This document shows positions 1 through 15,528 of a stretch of 35,243 bases of DNA, piece by piece. Within the stretch, counting starts at the first letter, position 1, and each line of letters begins with the position of its first letter. The notes under the pieces are model-generated. The model was not told where the DNA came from. It was given only the letters and a program-made list of their open reading frames with translations, and ran no database searches. This stretch comes from a virus (taxonomy: Duplodnaviria; Heunggongvirae; Uroviricota; Caudoviricetes): IMG/VR virus record IMGVR_UViG_2737471821_000011, positions 1-35,243 of that record, one strand, 5' to 3'. The position numbers and the translations under genes are program-made.

Positions 1-1257
1 GTGCTTACCGATACAAAATTAAAAAACCTCAAGCCGCAGGACAAACTGTACAAGGTCTCCGATCGTGACGGGCTGTATGTAGCTGTGCTTACGTCAGGCA
101 CGGTCTCGTTTCGCTATGACTACCGTATCAACGGTCGCCGCGAAACACTGGTAATCGGGCAGTATGGGCGTGACGGTATCAGCCTGGCAGAAGCGCGAGA
201 AGAACTGATTGCTGCAAAGAAGCTGCTTAAAGCAGGCCAGTCACCGGCTGCGGCTAAACGTGACGGTATCAAAAAGATTCGTGGTGCCGAGACGTTTGCG
301 GTACATACCGACAGTTATATGAAACACGTCATCCTGGCTGACAGTACCCGCGCAATGAAGCAGGCGGTGATCGACCGTGACATACTTCCAGTTCTTGGCA
401 ACAAAATGATGACTGAAATTACCACATCGATGGTTCGTGATTTGTGTGACCGGATTGTCGAACGCGGTGGTCGGGCAACAGCAGTACAGGCAAGGGAGAT
501 CATCAGCAGCGTATACCGTCACGCCAATGACCGTGGTCATGGTTTGTTTAATCCTGCGGCTGACATTAAACCTTCGTCTATCGCCATATTTAAACCACGA
601 GAGCGAACACTGACACCAGAAGAAATTGGCCTGTTCTTCCGCACGCTGGATGCCATTGGTGCTATGGGCACTATGAAAATGGCTTTAAAGCTGGTGCTTA
701 TCACTATGGTTCGTAAAGGCGAGTTCACCAATGCAACGTGGGATGAAATAGATTTTAAAAAATGGACATGGACAATTCCTTCAGACCGCATGAAGGGAAG
801 CCGGGCGCACGTTATTTACCTGCCTAAACAGGCACAGGATATATTGGTCGGGTTACAGATGTGCGCTGGTGGAAGTGAATATCTGGCTCCTGGTCGTTAC
901 AATTTCCGGAAGCCATTATCTAATGCCGCGCTGAACTCTCTGATCGACAGAACGGTGAAAATAATAAATGAAGATGGTGAGCATATTCAGGATTTCACCG
1001 TACACGATATGCGCCGTACAGCCAGTACGTTGTTGCATGAGGCTGGTTATCCTTCAGACTGGATTGAAAAGGCTCTGGCACATGAGCAGAAAGGTGTGCG
1101 CGCCGTATATAACAAAGCGGAATACGCAAGACAGCGCGCCTACATGTTGCAGCAGTGGGCCGATATGATTGATTCCTGGATTGACGGGGAGCATACGGAT
1201 CTGATTCCGTTCTCCCCGTCGAAGTTTGAGAAGTGGATGGAAGACAGTAATAAATAA
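1..1257 (+). CDS. int: Tyrosine integrase (P4-type phage integrase); start probably at or just beyond the window edge
   Basis: 418-aa ORF beginning at base 1 (GTG). N-terminus LTDTKLKNLKP...YKVSDRDGLY is the typical P4-type integrase N-terminal arm; C-terminal region has HDMRRT (H-x-x-R) and a tyrosine in AVYNKAEY. True start codon likely 1-3 codons upstream of the window. Confidence 0.85.
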   Translation: MLTDTKLKNLKPQDKLYKVSDRDGLYVAVLTSGTVSFRYDYRINGRRETLVIGQYGRDGISLAEAREELIAAKKLLKAGQSPAAAKRDGIKKIRGAETFAVHTDSYMKHVILADSTRAMKQAVIDRDILPVLGNKMMTEITTSMVRDLCDRIVERGGRATAVQAREIISSVYRHANDRGHGLFNPAADIKPSSIAIFKPRERTLTPEEIGLFFRTLDAIGAMGTMKMALKLVLITMVRKGEFTNATWDEIDFKKWTWTIPSDRMKGSRAHVIYLPKQAQDILVGLQMCAGGSEYLAPGRYNFRKPLSNAALNSLIDRTVKIINEDGEHIQDFTVHDMRRTASTLLHEAGYPSDWIEKALAHEQKGVRAVYNKAEYARQRAYMLQQWADMIDSWIDGEHTDLIPFSPSKFEKWMEDSNK

Positions 1258-6614: not shown

Positions 6615-7199
6615 TTATTGTTTGTTTTTTTCGTTCTGGCTGATGACAAATTCAATGTAACTTTCGATCTTTGCCTTCTCTGTTTCGGGTAACAATGCGT
6701 AGCGCGAGCGGTCATAGTTGATAGTCGCAGGGTCGTGCGGGTGAATCAGTAATTCATAGCCGTGACGCCCGAATGCGGATGCAACATTCTCCAGGGTGGA
6801 AATGGAAACGCTGACCTCATTGTTTAACAGGCGGCTGATTGTCACCTGGGCGACGCCGGATGCGCGGTGAAGTTTTCCCTGTGTTGAAAGGTCGCGGCTT
6901 TCGCTCATCCAGCGTTCCAGGTTGTGAGCCGCCAGCTGACCAATGTCGCTTGGGCCGACAGGCTGAAAACCTTCCTGAGAAAGCGAGCGATCGATATCAA
7001 GCCAGTTACGGGGTTTATTGGCGGCAGCTTCAATTTTTCGCGCAACCTGGTCGCCGATAACCTTCTTGCCAAGAGCCCAGCGGTTTACCAGATTTGCCTG
7101 AGTTCCAAGTTTTTCTGCCATCCGCGTCTGAACACCATTGAATTCACGGTCGATCAAGTCGTTGAGATTTTGCCTGCGGACGTCCTGGATACTTTTCAT
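6615..7199 (-). CDS. Putative prophage repressor with two HTH motifs and no recognisable autocleavage domain
   Basis: 194 aa. N-terminal HTH (QTRMAEKLGTQANLVNRW) and a second HTH (GKLHRASGVAQVTISRLLNNEVSVSISTLENVASAFG). Divergent from a Cro-like gene with three operator-like sites between them. I see no S24 peptidase Ser/Lys signature. Confidence 0.55.
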   Translation of the reverse strand: MKSIQDVRRQNLNDLIDREFNGVQTRMAEKLGTQANLVNRWALGKKVIGDQVARKIEAAANKPRNWLDIDRSLSQEGFQPVGPSDIGQLAAHNLERWMSESRDLSTQGKLHRASGVAQVTISRLLNNEVSVSISTLENVASAFGRHGYELLIHPHDPATINYDRSRYALLPETEKAKIESYIEFVISQNEKNKQ

Positions 7200-7317: not shown

Positions 7318-7353
7318 ATATTTATTATCTGAAATAAATATCAGGCAATAGCT

Positions 7354-7584
7354 ATGAGCGATAACGGACATTTCGATTTCAAAAAGCACTGGCTTGCACT
7401 TACTCCGGATGAGCGTGAAGCCTTCGCACAGGAAGCCGGAACGACGAGTCACTATATCCAGACTCACTTAACAGGTAAGCGCAAAATGCCAGGTAAGGTA
7501 TTGATGAATGGGCTTTTTAAAGCCTGTAAAACAAGACAATGGCTGCGCTCAAAAGCAGAACTGGCATACTTCTTCTACTCATGA
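7354..7584 (+). CDS. Cro-like small HTH regulator
   Basis: 76 aa, divergent from the repressor-like gene; HTH-like segment REAFAQEAGTTSHYIQTHLTG; followed by an intrinsic terminator. Confidence 0.5.
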   Translation: MSDNGHFDFKKHWLALTPDEREAFAQEAGTTSHYIQTHLTGKRKMPGKVLMNGLFKACKTRQWLRSKAELAYFFYS

Positions 7585-7950: not shown

Positions 7951-8766
7951 ATGAGCAGACATGCAACAGATTGGGCCTGGGAGACAGATCCAGGCAGCTC
8001 ATCATTAAAGCTCATACTGCTCTCGATGGCTGACAGAGCCGATGAATATAACCTCTGCTACCCCAGCATAGAACGCCTAGTTAAAGACACTTGCCTGAAT
8101 AAAAAAACCGTGCAGGCCGGACTTATATCGCTCATGAAAATGGGGCTTATTTCAGATACCGGAGAGAGAAAGGGAGCGACGAAAAGAGTGCGGGTTTTCT
8201 CTCTTAATATAACCAAAAACGGGAACATTAAAGGCAACCGGGAAGGGGGTAATGAACCCAAAAACGGTAATGTTACCGAAAACGGGAATATACCCAAAAA
8301 CGGGATGTTGAATGATCCCAAAAACGGGATGTTGAATGATCCCAAAAACGGGATCCAGAACCAGTCATATAACCAGTCATTTAACCAAGAGAGGGAGAGC
8401 AGGACAAAAACCGGGGATTCTGTGCCTCATGACCCCGGCGCAAACAACGCTGTGATGAATAACTTTGTTCCTCCAGGTGGGCCAGGGCAATTAGGCAAAT
8501 TTGTCATGCATGAACAATGGCAGCCATCAGATGACTTTCTTCGGAAAAGCTCATTGCAGGGGATCTACCTGGACAGTCTGCCAACGGCACAGGAACTTGC
8601 AGAGTTCAGAATTTACTGGATGGCTGAGGGTAAGGCATACCATCAGGCACAGTGGGAGCAGAAGCTGGCAAGGCGGCTGCAGATTAGCAGACAGAAGCAA
8701 TCAACATTACCTGATAACAACGTTCCGCACTGGAACAGCCCTGAAGCGTGGGAGGATTTCTTGTGA
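7951..8766 (+). CDS. Replication initiator (lambda O-like)
   Basis: N-terminal HTH-like region (LKLILLSMADRADEYNLCYPSIERLVKDTCLNKKTVQAGLISLMKMGLI) and internal iteron repeats that encode PKNG peptide repeats; followed by a P-like gene with GTGA overlap. Confidence 0.7.
   Translation: MSRHATDWAWETDPGSSSLKLILLSMADRADEYNLCYPSIERLVKDTCLNKKTVQAGLISLMKMGLISDTGERKGATKRVRVFSLNITKNGNIKGNREGGNEPKNGNVTENGNIPKNGMLNDPKNGMLNDPKNGIQNQSYNQSFNQERESRTKTGDSVPHDPGANNAVMNNFVPPGGPGQLGKFVMHEQWQPSDDFLRKSSLQGIYLDSLPTAQELAEFRIYWMAEGKAYHQAQWEQKLARRLQISRQKQSTLPDNNVPHWNSPEAWEDFL
8213..8362 (+). repeat. Iteron-like direct repeats, putative replication origin inside the O-like gene
   Basis: About six copies of CC(C/A/G)AAAACGG(G) spaced 17-24 bp, including two perfect 24-bp units CCCAAAAACGGGATGTTGAATGAT at ~8317-8340 and ~8293-8316; followed by AACCAGTCAT x2. 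Confidence 0.6.
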
Positions 8767-10757: not shown

Positions 10758-11274
10758 CTATCAGGTACTGCGTGAGGCAGCAGTAGCAATTGAAACAGTA
10801 GCAACGCCTCAAAAATTGCTGGCATTTCGTATGAAAGTCACACCTCAGGTTGTGCTGGCTCTACTGGATGAACTGGAAGCCAAAGACAAAGCATGGTCCG
10901 CACAGGACAACCATATCAACCAGCAGGCTTACCGAATTGAATCGCTGGAAAAGAAGAATGGCGAGCTGGGAAGATCGCTGGAAGCCGCAGAGAAGCGCAT
11001 AGCAGAACTGGAAGCCGAACCTGTAAGCCAAACTTGCAAGTTGAACGAGCCATCGGGCAACTCTCCGGTAACTCCGGGTGGTTGGATAAGCTGTAGTGAT
11101 CGAATGCCGAAAGGGTATGCTGATGTGTTAGTGACCGACGGCGAGCATGTCGAGGTTAAATGGTGGGATGAATCTGGGTATTGGAATAGTTGGACGGAAC
11201 TTAGCTCAGATATCCTTGCCCATGAAATAACTCACTGGATGCCGCTACCGGAGCCGCCGCAGGAGGCAAAATGA
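10744..11274 (+). CDS. Hypothetical protein with C-terminal DUF551-like domain
   Basis: C-terminus GWISCSDRMPKGYADVLVTDGEHVEVKWWDESGYWNSW...ITHWMPLPEPP resembles the DUF551 pattern common in prophages. Confidence 0.45.
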   Translation: MSKIDYQVLREAAVAIETVATPQKLLAFRMKVTPQVVLALLDELEAKDKAWSAQDNHINQQAYRIESLEKKNGELGRSLEAAEKRIAELEAEPVSQTCKLNEPSGNSPVTPGGWISCSDRMPKGYADVLVTDGEHVEVKWWDESGYWNSWTELSSDILAHEITHWMPLPEPPQEAK

Positions 11275-11624
11275 TGGACTATTCACAGTTAAGTGATTTT
11301 GAAATTAACAGAATGGTAGGAGACATAATTTTTAAAGGCCTTTGGGCGTGTAAACCGGAAACATCAGGGAATAACACCAACAAATGGTATTACGGAAATA
11401 CTGATACAACTTTTGAGCCATTAAACCCTTTACCTGACTACTGCAATAATCCATCGGATGCATGGCCTATTATTGTTGATAATAAAATCAGTCTAACCTG
11501 CCACCAATCTCGCGGTGAGTGGTCAGCTGTTTTTAATGCCGAGAACATTTGCTTTCATGCGAATAATCCACTCCGAGCCGCCATGATTGTATTTCTCATG
11601 ATGCAGGAAAATCAGAATGGCTAA
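11271..11624 (+). CDS. Hypothetical protein
   Basis: 117-aa ORF, ATGA overlap with upstream gene. Confidence 0.45.
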   Translation: MMDYSQLSDFEINRMVGDIIFKGLWACKPETSGNNTNKWYYGNTDTTFEPLNPLPDYCNNPSDAWPIIVDNKISLTCHQSRGEWSAVFNAENICFHANNPLRAAMIVFLMMQENQNG

Positions 11625-11955
11625 ATCAGCAGCAGAGCGCAAAGCCGCTCAGAGAGCCAGACAAGCTGCATCTGGTGTGCGTAAGCTGGAAATTGTGCTT
11701 GATGCTCAGGAAATTGAAATGCTGGAGCGTAACTGTGCCGCGCGTCGCCCAGGGCGTGCGCCTTACGAATTTGGTGAGTATATAGCGTTACTGATCCGCC
11801 AGGATGATGCACGCGTGCGCGGGCGTATAAAATCGATCAGTAGAAAACGTTGCGGTAAGTGCGGCGAGAGAGTTCCAGTTAATTCATGTCCGTGTAATGG
11901 TGACTCACAATGCTGGGTGACTAAAGGCTGGCATGAAACGAAATTAATAGTGTGA
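11617..11955 (+). CDS. Small basic protein with C-terminal Cys4 cluster (candidate DNA-binding regulator)
   Basis: 112 aa; basic N-terminus (RKLEIVLDAQEIEMLER) and CGKCGERVPVNSCPCNGDSQC. Last gene before the packaging genes; its stop codon lies inside a GTGACATGTCAC palindrome. Confidence 0.45.
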   Translation: MAKSAAERKAAQRARQAASGVRKLEIVLDAQEIEMLERNCAARRPGRAPYEFGEYIALLIRQDDARVRGRIKSISRKRCGKCGERVPVNSCPCNGDSQCWVTKGWHETKLIV

Positions 11956-11963
11956 CATGTCAC
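11952..11963. repeat. Perfect 12-bp palindrome GTGACATGTCAC (copy 1 of 3)
   Basis: Read directly; overlaps the stop codon of the 11617..11955 gene. Confidence 0.8.
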
Positions 11964-12004
11964 GAGTAGATTATGCATGATGAATTTGACGGGTTTTGAA
12001 TACT

Positions 12005-12030
12005 GCCGCCAACTATGGCGGCTTTATTTT
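12005..12030 (+). terminator. Intrinsic terminator immediately upstream of the packaging genes
   Basis: Hairpin GCCGCCA-ACTA-TGGCGGC followed by TTTATTTT. Confidence 0.7.
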
Positions 12031-12041
12031 GCATGGTACTA

Positions 12042-12056
12042 TTACCACAACGGTAA
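12042..12056. promoter_or_regulatory. Operator-like inverted repeat TTACC-ACAAC-GGTAA (plus imperfect copy TTACC-ACGGT-GGTTA at ~12060-12074)
   Basis: Perfect copy directly abutting a TACTAT -10-like hexamer (~12037-12042), 20-30 bp before the small terminase start. Confidence 0.55.
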
Positions 12057-12073
12057 CTATTACCACGGTGGTT

Positions 12074-12670
12074 ATGATGTCTGCTGAACCTAAAACCTAT
12101 AAACGCAAATCAACGCAATTTAAGCCACTAACAGCAATGCAGGAGGCTTATTGCCAGTCATACATCAAAACGCCTGAAAACCAGACTCAGGCAGCGATTA
12201 ACGCAGGATTCTCCCCAAATACAGCGGCAGTTAAAGCCAGTGTCATGATGCGCGATGAACGCATTCAAAAACGGATTGCCGAGTTGATGGAGGAGCGCAA
12301 CAAACGAATGCGCGTCAGTGCTGATTACGTTCTCATGCGCCTGGTGGAGATCGACCAGATGGACGTGATCGACATCCTCAACGACGATGGGAGCCTTAAA
12401 CCAATCCGTGAGTGGCCGAAAATCTGGCGCACTACGCTTAGTGGCTTTGATCTGTCATCGACCATCATGAACATGAACGAGGATTCGATAGAGACAATCC
12501 TCAAAAAAATTAAATGGCCTGACAAGGTGAAGAACCTTGAGCTGATTGGTAAGCATGTTGATGTCAACGCGTTCAAAGAACGTCTGGATGTTAATGTGAA
12601 TGTGACAATTGCTGATCGCATAGCAGCAGCCAGGAAGAGACTGAAAGAACGTCAGGATGGCAATCAGTGA
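12074..12670 (+). CDS. Terminase small subunit
   Basis: Position immediately upstream of, and overlapping (GTGA), the large terminase gene. Internal ATG chosen because the track ORF's N-terminal extension covers the terminator and operator. Confidence 0.6.
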   Translation: MMSAEPKTYKRKSTQFKPLTAMQEAYCQSYIKTPENQTQAAINAGFSPNTAAVKASVMMRDERIQKRIAELMEERNKRMRVSADYVLMRLVEIDQMDVIDILNDDGSLKPIREWPKIWRTTLSGFDLSSTIMNMNEDSIETILKKIKWPDKVKNLELIGKHVDVNAFKERLDVNVNVTIADRIAAARKRLKERQDGNQ

Positions 12671-14142
12671 CAGATACAGCGTTATCTCCTGAAGAGCAGT
12701 TAATCGAGGATATTGCAGGGTTCACTCACGATCCGCTTGGCTATGCCCTCTATGCGTTCCCGTGGGGGGAAGAGGGTACTGAACTGGCACATGCCACCGG
12801 TCCACGTCAGTGGCAGGCCGATGCGTTCCGAGAGATACGTGATCACCTGCAGAATCCAGAGACGCGCTATCAGCCGCTTATGCTGGCACGCGCTTCTGGT
12901 CACGGTATTGGTAAATCCGCATTCATCTCAATGCTGATCAACTGGGGCATGTCCACTTGCGAGGATTGTAAGGTCGTGGTGACCGCCAACACCGACAACC
13001 AGCTACGAACGAAGACCTGGCCGGAAATTATCAAGTGGTCGAACCTTGCTATCACGAAAGAGTGGTTTACCTGTACCGCTACCGCGATGTACAGCAATGA
13101 CCCTGGGCACGACAAGCGGTGGCGAGCTGACGCAATCCCCTGGTCTGAGCACAACACTGAGGCATTCGCCGGACTACACAACGAGCGAAAACGCATCATC
13201 GTGGTATTCGATGAAGCGTCGAACATTGCGGATCTGGTGTGGGAAGTTGCTGAGGGTGCGCTTACGGACGAAGACACTGAGATTATCTGGGTGGCGTTCG
13301 GAAACCCTACACGTAACACCGGACGTTTCCGCGAATGTTTCCGCAAATATAAACACCGCTGGAAAACTGCGCAGATTGACAGCCGAACGGTGGAAGGCAC
13401 TAACAAACAGCAGTTGCAGAAATGGGTTGATGACTACGGGGAAGACAGCGACTTCGTTAAAATCCGTGTGCGCGGCATATTCCCTGATGCATCTGAATTG
13501 CAGTTTATCCCTACCGGTCTTACTGATGAGGCAATGAAACGGGTGGTAACCGCTGCGCAGGTGGCGCATGCTCCGGTGATAATCGGTGTTGACCCGGCAT
13601 ATTCAGGCGTTGATGACGCGGTGATATACCTGCGGCAGGGGCTACACAGTAAGGTGCTGTGGACTGGCAACAAGACTACCGACGATCTGATTATGGCGAA
13701 GCGTATCGCTGACTTTGAAGACCAGTATCAGGCTGACGCGGTGTTCATCGACTTCGGTTACGGAACCGGTCTGAAGTCAATCGGTGACGGATGGGGTCGT
13801 ACATGGCAACTTGTTCCGTTCGGTGGCGCGTCTACTGACCCGCAGATGCTCAACAAGCGTGGGGAGATGTTCAATTCATGCAAGACATGGCTGAGGCTGG
13901 GCGGCATGCTGGATGACCAGGAAACAGCAGACGACCTGTCGGCGGCAGAGTACAAAGTTCGAGTGGATGGTAAAATCGTTATCGAACCGAAGGAAGATAT
14001 CAAGGAGCGGCTTGGGCGTTCGCCGGGTAAAGGCGATGCGCTACTGCTGACGTTTGCGTTCCCTGTGTCTAAGCGTCTGCGAATTCCCGGGCAGCAGAAC
14101 CAGCAAGGCAAGGCCATCACAGATTACGATCCCTATGCTTAA
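12667..14142 (+). CDS. Terminase large subunit
   Basis: 491 aa; Walker A-like RASGHGIGKS, Walker B-like IIVVFDEAS, nuclease domain at the C-terminus. Confidence 0.9.
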   Translation: MTDTALSPEEQLIEDIAGFTHDPLGYALYAFPWGEEGTELAHATGPRQWQADAFREIRDHLQNPETRYQPLMLARASGHGIGKSAFISMLINWGMSTCEDCKVVVTANTDNQLRTKTWPEIIKWSNLAITKEWFTCTATAMYSNDPGHDKRWRADAIPWSEHNTEAFAGLHNERKRIIVVFDEASNIADLVWEVAEGALTDEDTEIIWVAFGNPTRNTGRFRECFRKYKHRWKTAQIDSRTVEGTNKQQLQKWVDDYGEDSDFVKIRVRGIFPDASELQFIPTGLTDEAMKRVVTAAQVAHAPVIIGVDPAYSGVDDAVIYLRQGLHSKVLWTGNKTTDDLIMAKRIADFEDQYQADAVFIDFGYGTGLKSIGDGWGRTWQLVPFGGASTDPQMLNKRGEMFNSCKTWLRLGGMLDDQETADDLSAAEYKVRVDGKIVIEPKEDIKERLGRSPGKGDALLLTFAFPVSKRLRIPGQQNQQGKAITDYDPYA

Positions 14143-14192: not shown

Positions 14193-14212
14193 AGCCAGCT
14201 CATCGGCTGGCT
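14193..14212. terminator. Bidirectional intrinsic terminator between the terminase and the opposite-strand gene
   Basis: Hairpin AGCCAGC-TCATCG-GCTGGCT with GTTTGT on the plus side and TTTGTTTTAT on the minus side; a second hairpin TATCCTC-TGAT-GAGGATA at ~14169-14186. Confidence 0.6.
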
Positions 14213-14216
14213 GTTT

Positions 14217-14228
14217 GTGACATGTCAC
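14217..14228. repeat. Perfect 12-bp palindrome GTGACATGTCAC (copy 2 of 3)
   Basis: Read directly; lies between the bidirectional terminator and the 3' end of the minus-strand gene. Confidence 0.8.
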
Positions 14229-14232
14229 GGTG

Positions 14233-14604
14233 TTATTGCTCGCTTAGCTTCTGCTTCAGCAAGTAACCTTCGAGCATCCAGATTTTGTTTACAGCATTCT
14301 GCCGGGCAATCTTCCGACCAATTTCTGCATCAAAGTTTTCCGGGCTTGCACAGGCGCTCTCTCCGGTGACGGTGAAGCCGTTGCGCAGCACCAGGACGCA
14401 GAACGTCAGCAGAGAAAGTGATTCGTGCGGCTGGTAGTTTACCTCTCCGCCAGTATGTTTCGCTTTTATGGCTTTGCCAAAGGCACCATCTTCTGCTGTG
14501 AAATATGCCTCCTGAGCAATAATGCCTTCGATATGGTCTGGCGTAACGCGCGGTGCCGTTTTGCCTTTCTCAACGATTTCTTTTTCGATTTGCTGGTCGT
14601 TCAT
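14233..14604 (-). CDS. Hypothetical phage protein (possibly N4-gp49/Sf6-gp66-like family)
   Basis: 123 aa; LRNGFTVTGESACASPENFDAEIGRKIARQNAVNKIWMLEGYLL resembles a conserved phage family. Family name from memory, low confidence. Confidence 0.5.
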   Translation of the reverse strand: MNDQQIEKEIVEKGKTAPRVTPDHIEGIIAQEAYFTAEDGAFGKAIKAKHTGGEVNYQPHESLSLLTFCVLVLRNGFTVTGESACASPENFDAEIGRKIARQNAVNKIWMLEGYLLKQKLSEQ

Positions 14605-14803: not shown

Positions 14804-14880
14804 TGGCGTGGCATGCAGGATTCGAACCTGCGACCAACCGCTTAGAAGGCGGTTGCTCTGTCCAACTGAGCTAATGCCAC
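14804..14880 (-). tRNA. tRNA-Arg (anticodon UCU), phage-encoded, CCA encoded
   Basis: Hand-folded cloverleaf on the minus strand: acceptor GTGGCAT/ATGCCAC, D-arm GCTC-AGTTGGACA-GAGC, anticodon arm ACCGC-CTTCTAA-GCGGT (anticodon TCT), variable TGGTC, T-arm GCAGG-TTCGAAT-CCTGC, discriminator G, CCA. Confidence 0.85.
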
Positions 14881-15202
14881 AACGCTGAGAGCACTTAGCC
14901 TGTTAAGGCGCCACACTTTGTCGCGGCTCCATAAATGCTCTCATCGTTGTACCCTCGTCTCTTCCGAGGCGTCACACCGAATCGCCGGGATGGTGAATCC
15001 CCGTGCGCGGAATAAAACCGCTCGACTTGCACATTCCGGCTACCTGGTTCGTTTGCCCGAGCAAGGGAGGGTGCCCCTTAAACGTATCCAGACCGCTATC
15101 GGCGCATGTGCCATACGCCGTACTGCTCAAAATAAAAGCTCACTCCACCTGTTCAATTTAACGACAAGCCAGTCAGGTTAATAACCGGAATGAACTCTTT
15201 GG

Positions 15203-15217
15203 TTACCTGAAAGGTAA
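15203..15217. promoter_or_regulatory. Operator-like inverted repeat TTACC-TGAAA-GGTAA
   Basis: Perfect copy about 90 bp upstream of the first head gene, followed by ATGTGGTT at ~15262-15269. Confidence 0.6.
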
Positions 15218-15307
15218 TAATTCGTGCGTTAAATGTCAGCTATCTACGATAAATAAATCATATGTGGTTAAATTGGTAATAATTTAATTGCGTACGGAGT
15301 CATTGAT

Positions 15308-15514
15308 ATGTGCATGGGTAGCTCACCGTCAGTGCCTGCAACACCAGAAGTTCAGGCAGCACCACAGGAGCAGGATGCCGCCGTTGTTGATGCCCGCGAC
15401 GAAGAAACTCGTCGCCGTCGCGCTGCTGCTGGTCGTAGTTCTACGCTGCTTACCGGTTCTCAGGGTGACACATCAACCGCTAATACCAGCGGTAAAACGC
15501 TGCTTGGTCAGTAA
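15308..15514 (+). CDS. Hypothetical small protein preceding the portal gene
   Basis: 68-aa ORF with GGAG RBS; Ala/Thr/Arg-rich. Confidence 0.4.
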   Translation: MCMGSSPSVPATPEVQAAPQEQDAAVVDARDEETRRRRAAAGRSSTLLTGSQGDTSTANTSGKTLLGQ

Positions 15515-15528
15515 CCGGAGTCATTGAA

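Follow-up and report, generated by a model that had tools for sequence, protein, structure and literature searches.

What separates the early-right operon from the packaging genes in epsilon15/phiV10-like phages, and what controls the passage from one to the other? We addressed this question in the virus record IMGVR_UViG_2737471821_000011 of IMG/VR, using a stretch of 35,243 nucleotides (nt) that covers positions 1 to 35,243 of the record and that is hereafter called the window. To judge from its sequence, the window is a nearly complete Uetakevirus genome, i.e., an epsilon15/phiV10-like podovirus. Its gene order agrees with that of the phiV10 and epsilon15 records, and the region 11200-12700 has 94-99% identity to the Escherichia phages HEMP4, vB_EcoP_ZX5, and TL-2011b, and also to phiV10 over the shared part. 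The evidence supports positions 11617-12076 as the place where the early-right operon meets the packaging genes. There, a gene for a small basic protein, predicted to combine a ribbon-helix-helix (RHH) fold with a four-cysteine (Cys4) module, is followed by a palindrome, a terminator, and a promoter overlapped by putative repressor operators. We tentatively propose, with less than even confidence, that this boundary consists of the terminator, of a terS promoter under the operators, and of the RHH-Cys4 protein, which would bind palindromes at unit boundaries to tune read-through and would be an insulator more likely than a late activator. Phages of this type serve as typing, reporter, and structural-biology models for Salmonella and E. 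coli O157, and the searchable epsilon15/phiV10 literature gave no description of their late-gene control, nor of the RHH-Cys4 protein. The features of the boundary are the following:

11617..11955, + strand: RHH-Cys4 gene (112 aa, basic), final gene of the early-right operon, phrog_536
11952..11963, no strand: palindrome copy 1, GTGACATGTCAC, overlapping the TGA stop of the RHH-Cys4 gene and matching 13 of the 14 positions of TGTGACATGTCACA
12005..12030, + strand: intrinsic terminator, with stem 12005-12022 (GCCGCCA/UGGCGGC), a 4-nt loop, and the tract UUUAUUUUG
12034..12042, + strand: extended -10 element TGgTACTAT of the predicted promoter for terS-terL, with TG at 12034-12035 and TACTAT at 12037-12042
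12041..12057, no strand: operator-like site O1, ATTACCACAACGGTAAC, overlapping the -10 element and the predicted transcription start
12059..12075, no strand: operator-like site O2, ATTACCACGGTGGTTAT, covering the Shine-Dalgarno sequence GGTGG and the terS ATG; its epsilon15 counterpart is ATTACTTCGGTGGTAAC
12074..12670, + strand: terS, small terminase (Terminase_2, PF03592, 1e-29)

Terminator, promoter, and operators before terS

The hairpin at the end of the early-right operon has the marks of a strong intrinsic terminator, namely a 7-bp stem with six G-C pairs, a 4-nt loop, and a U-tract. The stem 12005-12022 together with TTTATTTTG has a folding free energy of -15.8 kcal/mol and a z-score of -5.15, equalled in 0 of 200 shuffles. 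The stem has also been kept in epsilon15 and PAT1 despite the divergence of the flanks. These observations support the view that early transcripts should halt at 12005-12030, in agreement with the preliminary description of this locus, which had proposed that a strong intrinsic terminator blocks early read-through.

Downstream of the terminator, the predicted promoter of terS-terL has no usable -35 element, as the corresponding position falls within the terminator stem. By its sequence it is an extended -10 promoter for sigma-70, i.e., TGn followed by a hexamer whose second base is A and whose sixth is T. Among more than 30 junction sequence variants, plus epsilon15 and PAT1, the TG is invariant; it is followed by G, A, or T and then by TACTAT or TATTAT as the hexamer. 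A promoter with a TGn extended -10 element can do without a -35 element, and the missing -35 is therefore no evidence for an activator. The preliminary description had correctly reported TACTAT without a good -35 but had missed the TG, and with a conserved extended -10 element and two repressor operators the promoter need not depend on an activator, as that description had suggested. The operator copy that it had placed at the promoter is real, but there are two copies in tandem. The real start of terS is the ATG at 12074 or 12077, not 12076 (the mechanical open reading frame (ORF) call had used the TTG at 11996).

Both operators follow ATTACC-N5-GGTAAT, a 17-bp motif that the GenBank record of epsilon15 annotates as repressor site; just ahead of terS in that record, at 12..27, the equivalent of O1 is marked as bound by the repressor. 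We found 12 matches of the motif in the window at up to two mismatches, against 0.92 expected. Besides O1 and O2, copies lie near the repressor gene (6480, 6542, and 7254), before the DUF1064 block (9585 and 9647), ahead of a small ORF that precedes the portal gene (15202), and in the antirepressor region (32405 and 33852). A direct repeat, ACTATTACCAC present twice, was discarded as a separate candidate, for it is simply the two tandem operator copies. The repressor of the window (6615-7199, - strand) has 42% identity to gp38 of epsilon15. The roughly ten dispersed operators suggest that one repressor might directly control early, packaging, and structural units. Since the terS promoter carries two tandem operators, direct repression and de-repression is the control that can be read from the DNA.

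The RHH-Cys4 protein and its associated palindrome

The preliminary description had drawn attention to a 112-aa basic protein with a CGKC...CPC cluster, encoded by the last early gene, and this protein is indeed found at 11617-11955. It has a pI of 9.8, with 23 K+R versus 13 D+E, and cysteines at positions 40, 79, 82, 91, 93, and 99. Homologues include gp49 of epsilon15 (79% identity), PhiV10p55, and gp46 of N15, and the existing annotation of the gp49/PhiV10p55-type gene as "transcriptional regulator" is based on similarity only. The CGKC...CPC...C cluster is family-wide: among 65 diverse homologues, C79, C82, and C99 are invariant, and the third Cys ligand occurs at position 90 or 91 in 99% of them. 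The spacing in the family is CxxC-X7-10-C-X7-9-C. The protein matches phrog_536 at 1e-54 and has no family match in Pfam or NCBIfam. None of the Pfam RHH families scored above the curated threshold, the only matches being weak and scattered over one or two of the 65 members (RHH_5 0.013, RepB-RCR_reg 0.028, TacA1 0.024). Clustering at 50% identity gives the family 156 clusters among 1.8 billion representatives, which makes it a narrow one. In a search of phage records, the hosts of its phages were Escherichia, Salmonella, Klebsiella, Yersinia, Pectobacterium, Vibrio, and Aeromonas.

To describe the fold, we used an AlphaFold2 monomer model built from the 65 diverse members, with a predicted local distance difference test score (pLDDT) of 89.8. 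The model consists of a basic helix (residues 5-19), an extended segment (20-29), two helices (30-42 and 52-74), a Cys-rich knot (75-99), and a final helix. The predicted succession of beta-strand, helix, and helix matches solved RHH domains. The fold is thus predicted with high confidence to be ribbon-helix-helix, with a basic helix at the N-terminus and a Cys4 (zinc) module at the C-terminus, and the model makes it very probable that the protein is a sequence-specific DNA-binding regulator. A structure search of BFVD matched only a fragment of the RHH-Cys4 family itself. The preliminary description had suggested looking for antiterminator or activator folds, and this check returned RHH instead: no antiterminator or Ogr-type fold or family was matched in the Pfam scans, including those of the 65 members, or in the fold comparison, and the Q, Ogr/Delta, and Mor/C families were unmatched. 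A weak profile match to DksA/TraR (TraR 6n57_M, E 0.36, query residues 48-107) was not significant; the RHH-Cys4 protein and TraR have CxxCGxx(I/V/L)P in common, the second half differs, and Pfam zf-dskA_traR (CxxC-X17-CxxC behind a long helix) was not matched. Literature searches with the 12-mer palindrome and the protein accessions found no mention of either.

The palindrome GTGACATGTCAC has exactly three exact copies in the window (11952, 14217, and 31419), against 0.00 expected from 100 shuffles. The other two copies lie at the ends of other units:

14193..14228, no strand: palindrome copy 2 with hairpin; the hairpin is at 14193-14212 and the palindrome at 14217-14228, between the converging terL (+) and 14233-14604 (-)
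14233-14604, - strand: 123-aa gene converging with terL (+)
31419..31447, no strand: palindrome copy 3 with terminator; the palindrome at 31419-31430 abuts the terminator at 31432-31447

Copy 3 marks the end of the virion-protein block, which converges with the antirepressor-side genes on the - strand. The palindrome reported at the junction in the preliminary description is therefore real, but with copies after terL and after the virion-protein block it is neither unique to the junction nor specific to terS. At all three sites the order along the ending unit is gene stop, palindrome, and terminator hairpin, and the distance from palindrome to hairpin is 41 nt at site 1 (+ strand; 22 nt in epsilon15), 4 nt at site 2 (- strand), and 1 nt at site 3 (+ strand). 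Sites 2 and 3 are convergent junctions, where the hairpin has a good U-tract one way only; the other way, the palindrome directly follows the hairpin. By inspection, copies 2 and 3 have no promoter downstream on the + strand.

The same arrangement is found in close relatives. In epsilon15, palindromes occur at the three equivalent places (39612, 2142, and 19517) within diverged intergenic flanks, and phiV10 has copies at 2262 and 19493, plus a one-mismatch copy that spans the ends of the record and is equivalent to site 1. The palindrome of site 1 is kept over the stop codon in 78 of 80 close IMG/VR relatives, with the variation concentrated in the central CATG. The palindrome is 12-14 bp long, (T)GTGACATGTCAC(A). 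The spacer between palindrome 1 and the terminator (11964-12004) has a 1-bp length polymorphism, GATGGGTTTT versus GATGGTTTT, among near-identical phages (relatives L060, L061, and L070), and in the Salmonella lineage it is an unrelated, shorter sequence. Between the E. coli and Salmonella lineages, the distance from the palindrome to the -10 element changes by 18-19 bp, and even close relatives differ in it by 1 bp. The helical phasing of palindrome and promoter is ambiguous, with 19 bp between lineages and a 1-bp polymorphism inside a lineage. Two identities proposed for the palindrome were rejected. The phiV10 record begins in the middle of a palindrome, as might be expected of a cos or pac site, but it was merely linearized past the stop of the last gene, and a unique packaging site would not be expected in three copies per genome. 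The sites of CRP, FNR, and LexA do not fit in spacing or sequence.

We then considered the linkage of palindrome and gene across phages, scanning IMG/VR for the exact 14-mer without selecting for the gene and analyzing 80 locus fragments. A family member (39-100% identity) is encoded by 20 of the 80 fragments, and in 13 of these 20 the palindrome lies at most 12 nt from the stop. Overall, at least eight other phage backbones, among them phages that have a Q antiterminator of their own, carry the palindrome on or next to the stop codon of a family gene, and it adjoins family genes in ZF40, L090, L111, L121, L130, L159, and L224. In the Pectobacterium myovirus ZF40, TGTGACATGTCACA lies 1 nt past the stop of gp22, a 64%-identical homologue encoded between methyltransferase genes and ninB. 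Look-ups of distant representatives yielded three more cases: an exact copy covers the stop of a 54%-identical homologue in L224, a diverged copy (TGTAACGCGTCACA) lies 1 nt past the stop of a 46%-identical homologue in L215, and a degenerate copy occurs in L228. The neighbors of the gene-palindrome pairs are unrelated (terS, ninB, xis-int, and others): the pair is also found before ninB or Q, before xis-int, and in the genome of a myovirus. Phages that have the pair together with their own Q are ZF40, L224, L132, and L159, and the families Antiterm and Phage_antiter_Q were matched only in other genes of related phages. Lambdoid relatives have gene and palindrome before ninB...Q, followed by a terminator that takes the place of lambda tR2. 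In the contigs L096 and L151, the palindrome is directly upstream of a -35-like hexamer, TTGACC, which is followed by an operator. The pairing of gene and palindrome is strong, though not exclusive, and the palindrome is very probably the cis site of the RHH-Cys4 protein.

Palindromes were also seen in other settings. Two unrelated cro-like genes of lambdoid phages have the palindrome over their stop (GTG TGA), in the Escherichia phage LMessi (L210) at 7323 and in ST16-OXA48phi5.3 (L214) at 7537, and a cro-stop palindrome is listed for the further IMG/VR loci L091, L092, L106, L110, L112, L116, L120, and L123. The downstream ORF starts at the ATG within the palindrome in several contigs (MSQ... 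or MSH...), and some copies without a family gene sit inside Q genes, where they encode VTCH. N15-like phages have related palindromes with a longer center, TGCGACCATGGTCGCA, GGGACCATGGTCCC, and GGGACCGTGGTCCC, which occur in N15 itself (L007, 6123-6138), in L216 (804-817), and in L224 (two copies). In N15 this palindrome is just upstream of the -35 of the annotated late promoter, where either the divergent gp46 homologue or Q might bind it. In P2-like phages, the family gene follows gpA and stands beside large genes of SMC/AAA type (vB_YenM_42.18, L008, 4046-7701; L220, 3001-6366). These neighbors are annotated Smc or match the Pfam families AAA_15/AAA_23, CTD9, and MC5, and they look like a defense hotspot. 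An exact TGTGACATGTCACA follows the SMC-like gene of the Yersinia phage vB_YenM_42.18.

Possible roles at the ends of transcription units

In the account that we tentatively favor, early-right transcription would end at the intrinsic terminator, and terS-terL would be transcribed from their own sigma-70 promoter with its extended -10 element. The repressor would presumably occupy O1 and O2, as part of the genome-wide set of about ten operators, and would thereby shut off terS-terL in the lysogen. The RHH-Cys4 protein, expected to be of the dimer type, would be made only after the early operon has been fully read. It would then occupy the boundary palindromes and modulate read-through at unit ends, its most likely role being that of a roadblock or insulator that works in both directions and backs up terminators which leak or act one way only. 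This role fits all three sites and the usual repressor-like behavior of RHH proteins, and we rank it first with modest confidence. At sites 2 and 3 a roadblock is suggested because the hairpin is one-directional and the palindrome directly follows it in the U-tract-poor direction.

Several points weigh against this account. The roadblock itself is a role that we purely infer. The terminator that follows the palindrome at site 1, 41 nt downstream (22 nt in epsilon15), is strong by itself, and an extra roadblock seems redundant there. The center of this palindrome is near -91.5 (E. coli type) or -72.5 (Salmonella type) from the predicted start, close to the classical positions of class I activators. 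A strict intrinsic terminator lies within 70 nt in 16 of 76 unique palindrome contexts versus 2.8% of random positions, but this enrichment is confounded, as non-coding cis sites in dense phage genomes fall near terminators anyway. The N15-like, Mu-like, P2-like, and Vibrio subgroups have no such palindrome beside the gene. Conversely, the family gene was undetected in LMessi (complete genome) and in Klebsiella ST16-OXA48phi5.3 (first 14 kb examined), where the palindrome covers the cro stop, and another reader of the palindrome, from phage or host, is possible.

It is unlikely that the RHH-Cys4 protein is a late activator or antiterminator that binds the palindrome and turns on the packaging genes late, either by recruiting RNA polymerase to the -35-less terS promoter or by carrying early transcripts past the terminator. 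In favor of such a role, the early operon ends with this gene, directly before terS, and neither the Pfam scan, for the early-right ORFs that it covered, nor the annotation of the phiV10/epsilon15 homologues revealed a Q-like protein. The role would also suit the near-class I positions of the palindrome in two lineages, its place before the TTGACC hexamer in L096 and L151, and the tR2-like position in lambdoid relatives. However, the conserved extended -10 element and the two operators suffice for repressor-only control. Copies 2 and 3, which by inspection have no + strand promoter downstream, leave an activator fitting site 1 only, and even there its spacing to the promoter would vary by 1 bp among close relatives. 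As for antitermination, at site 2 only the - strand gene has its terminator beyond the palindrome, and polymerase would run antisense into terL. RHH proteins are mostly repressors, and the families of known activators and antiterminators named above were unmatched. The module occurs upstream of ninB, Q, or xis-int and in phages with their own Q, and therefore should not be a dedicated terminase or late-gene activator. Of the late-gene control that the preliminary description had assigned to the Cys4 protein, the part that remains is a very probable DNA-binding regulator; the dedicated late activator is the part that does not.

Quite unlikely, too, is that protein and palindromes form an architectural or genome-handling system, similar to MatP/matS or to RHH proteins and their centromeres, that would bridge or mark the phage DNA, for example for condensation, packaging, or the exclusion or unloading of host SMC. 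The half-sites of GTGAC-AT-GTCAC are identical to those of E. coli matS (GTGAC-RNY-GTCAC), with one central base fewer. In the search of phage records, the family was found only in phages of Enterobacterales, Vibrio, and Aeromonas, hosts which encode MatP. The sites are few, dispersed, and intergenic, and the gene travels with one of them, as partition proteins do with centromeres. Yet homology to MatP went undetected: hhalign gave the family profile a probability of 0.6% against E. coli MatP, and none of the 65 members matched the MatP Pfam families PF06303 and PF17414. The 12-bp site falls outside the 13-bp definition of matS, and a partner ATPase and a MatP-like coiled-coil tetramerization domain are absent. 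Moreover, the symmetric lac operator and the SlmA site share the arms GTGA...TCAC, and the resemblance may be a coincidence. Also quite unlikely is the idea that the palindrome merely tends to lie at gene junctions and is read not by the RHH-Cys4 protein but by a host factor, by another phage protein, or as an RNA hairpin. With TGA and ATG on either strand, it could be used as a stop/start junction, which agrees with the ORFs that begin at its ATG, with the cro-stop copies, and with the variation concentrated in the central CATG. As RNA, it can form a tetraloop hairpin of 4-5 bp, and the basic N-terminus AERKAAQRARQ of the protein resembles the arginine-rich motifs of N proteins. But this hairpin is weak, RHH is a fold that binds double-stranded DNA, some of the copies without the family gene are accounted for by VTCH within Q genes, and the presence of the palindrome at family-gene stops with unrelated neighbors is hard to explain without a functional link. 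A broader proposal, again quite unlikely, is a portable and undescribed module of trans-factor and cis-site in temperate phages of enterobacteria, which would act on DNA at operon boundaries and be either a new, DNA-site-dependent controller of terminator read-through (the late switch in Q-less phages) or a phage counterpart of MatP/matS that organizes the phage chromosome or protects it against host SMC complexes.

Our data suggest that these genomes comprise many separately terminated units, several of them, including terS, behind the same repressor operator. They also suggest an additional conserved layer, in which an uncharacterized DNA-binding protein is accompanied by candidate palindromes marking unit ends and which is portable across podo-, sipho-, and myovirus backbones. 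The module is small enough, with 112 aa for the protein and 12 bp for the site, to lend itself to experiments. Its study could reveal a new way of insulating or coupling operons, or an unexpected link to host MatP/matS. In genome records, "RHH-Cys4 DNA-binding protein, candidate site GTGACATGTCAC" would be a more precise label than "transcriptional regulator".

A few other observations were made in the window. A tRNA-Arg (anticodon TCT; 14804-14880, - strand) sits between terL and the portal block, and beside it around 400 bp (14880-15300) have no convincing ORF; the operator copy at 15202 then precedes a lipoprotein-like ORF at 15309-15515. The replication gene at 7951-8766 contains three terminator-like hairpins at 8265-8344, two made of TGGGATCATTCAACATCCCG+TTTTTGGG and one of CGGTAACATTACCG+TTTTTGGG, which, instead of being terminators, may be replication-origin iterons. 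Rfam identified a C4 antisense RNA (66 bits) and an isrK Hfq-binding RNA (67 bits) at 33252-33436 (- strand), beside the antirepressor-side genes. These include ORFs at 31714-32346 and 32493-33218 (- strand), and the counterpart region in phiV10 encodes a Bro-N domain protein. The region looks like an antirepressor control module of the P1/P7 immI type, in a podovirus. Operator copies are located at 32405 and 33852.

Comparison with known systems

The set of operators in the window, one motif at about ten sites before many units including the packaging genes, recalls the C1 repressor of P1 with its dispersed operators. A module with a C4-type antisense RNA and an antirepressor, as in P1, is also present in the window. 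In contrast with P1 C1, the window repressor is a helix-turn-helix protein related (42% identity) to epsilon15 gp38, the homologue of SPC32H Rep, and the operator sequence differs. The order of elements at the boundary resembles that of lambda Q and pR'-tR', with a regulator gene at the end of a delayed-early operon, then a terminator and the late genes. Like the RHH-Cys4 protein, Q proteins bind DNA and contain zinc, to judge in the former case by the predicted fold and the Cys4 module. However, the RHH-Cys4 protein has its candidate site before the terminator instead of within the promoter, and the late promoter lies under repressor operators. The Q families (PF03589, PF06323, or related) were unmatched, and hhalign gave a probability of 1.1% against a Q protein, over the Cys-rich stretch only.

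Ogr of P2 and Delta of P4 are likewise small Cys4 proteins, of the kind proposed to act on -35-less late promoters through an upstream dyad. Their cysteines are spaced as C-X2-C-X22-C-X4-C, in contrast with the CxxC-X7-10-C-X7-9-C found here, where moreover the DNA-binding part is predicted to be RHH. Pfam Ogr_Delta was unmatched, and the palindrome is not TGT-N12-ACA near -55, both its sequence and its position being different.

The likeness to MatP/matS comprises the 5-bp half-sites GTGAC/GTCAC, an RHH preceded by a basic helix, a similar host range, and a few dispersed sites. The phage site has 12 bp with a 2-bp spacer, whereas the E. coli matS consensus, GTGAC-RNY-GTCAC, has 13 bp with a 3-bp spacer (PMC3603311, PMC8669397). 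The window has no matS (GTGAC[AG]N[TC]GTCAC), even with one mismatch, and prophages have been reported to avoid true matS sites (PMC3603311). The phage protein is modeled without the N-terminal four-helix bundle and the C-terminal coiled coil of MatP, and a protein-database search with MatP returned only near-identical sequences. The resemblance to MatP is thus, as far as the models indicate, one of fold only, i.e., a lead and not a family membership.

Compared with the RHH regulators Arc, Mnt, CopG, MetJ, AmrZ, and MazE/ParD/TacA, the phage protein is predicted to have three additions: a helix rich in Arg and Lys at the N-terminus, a long loop of nine residues that carries a conserved PY motif, and the conserved Cys4 module at the C-terminus. 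As for an RHH-type palindromic site, the candidate is a perfect 12-bp palindrome linked to the gene, and the protein was modeled as a monomer only. Its candidate sites lie at the ends of genes and operons, not over its own promoter. The components, i.e., RHH, zinc module, palindromic site, extended -10 element, operators, and terminator, are all of known kinds, and what is uncharacterized is the combination of an RHH-Cys4 family with a portable palindrome at gene and operon ends.

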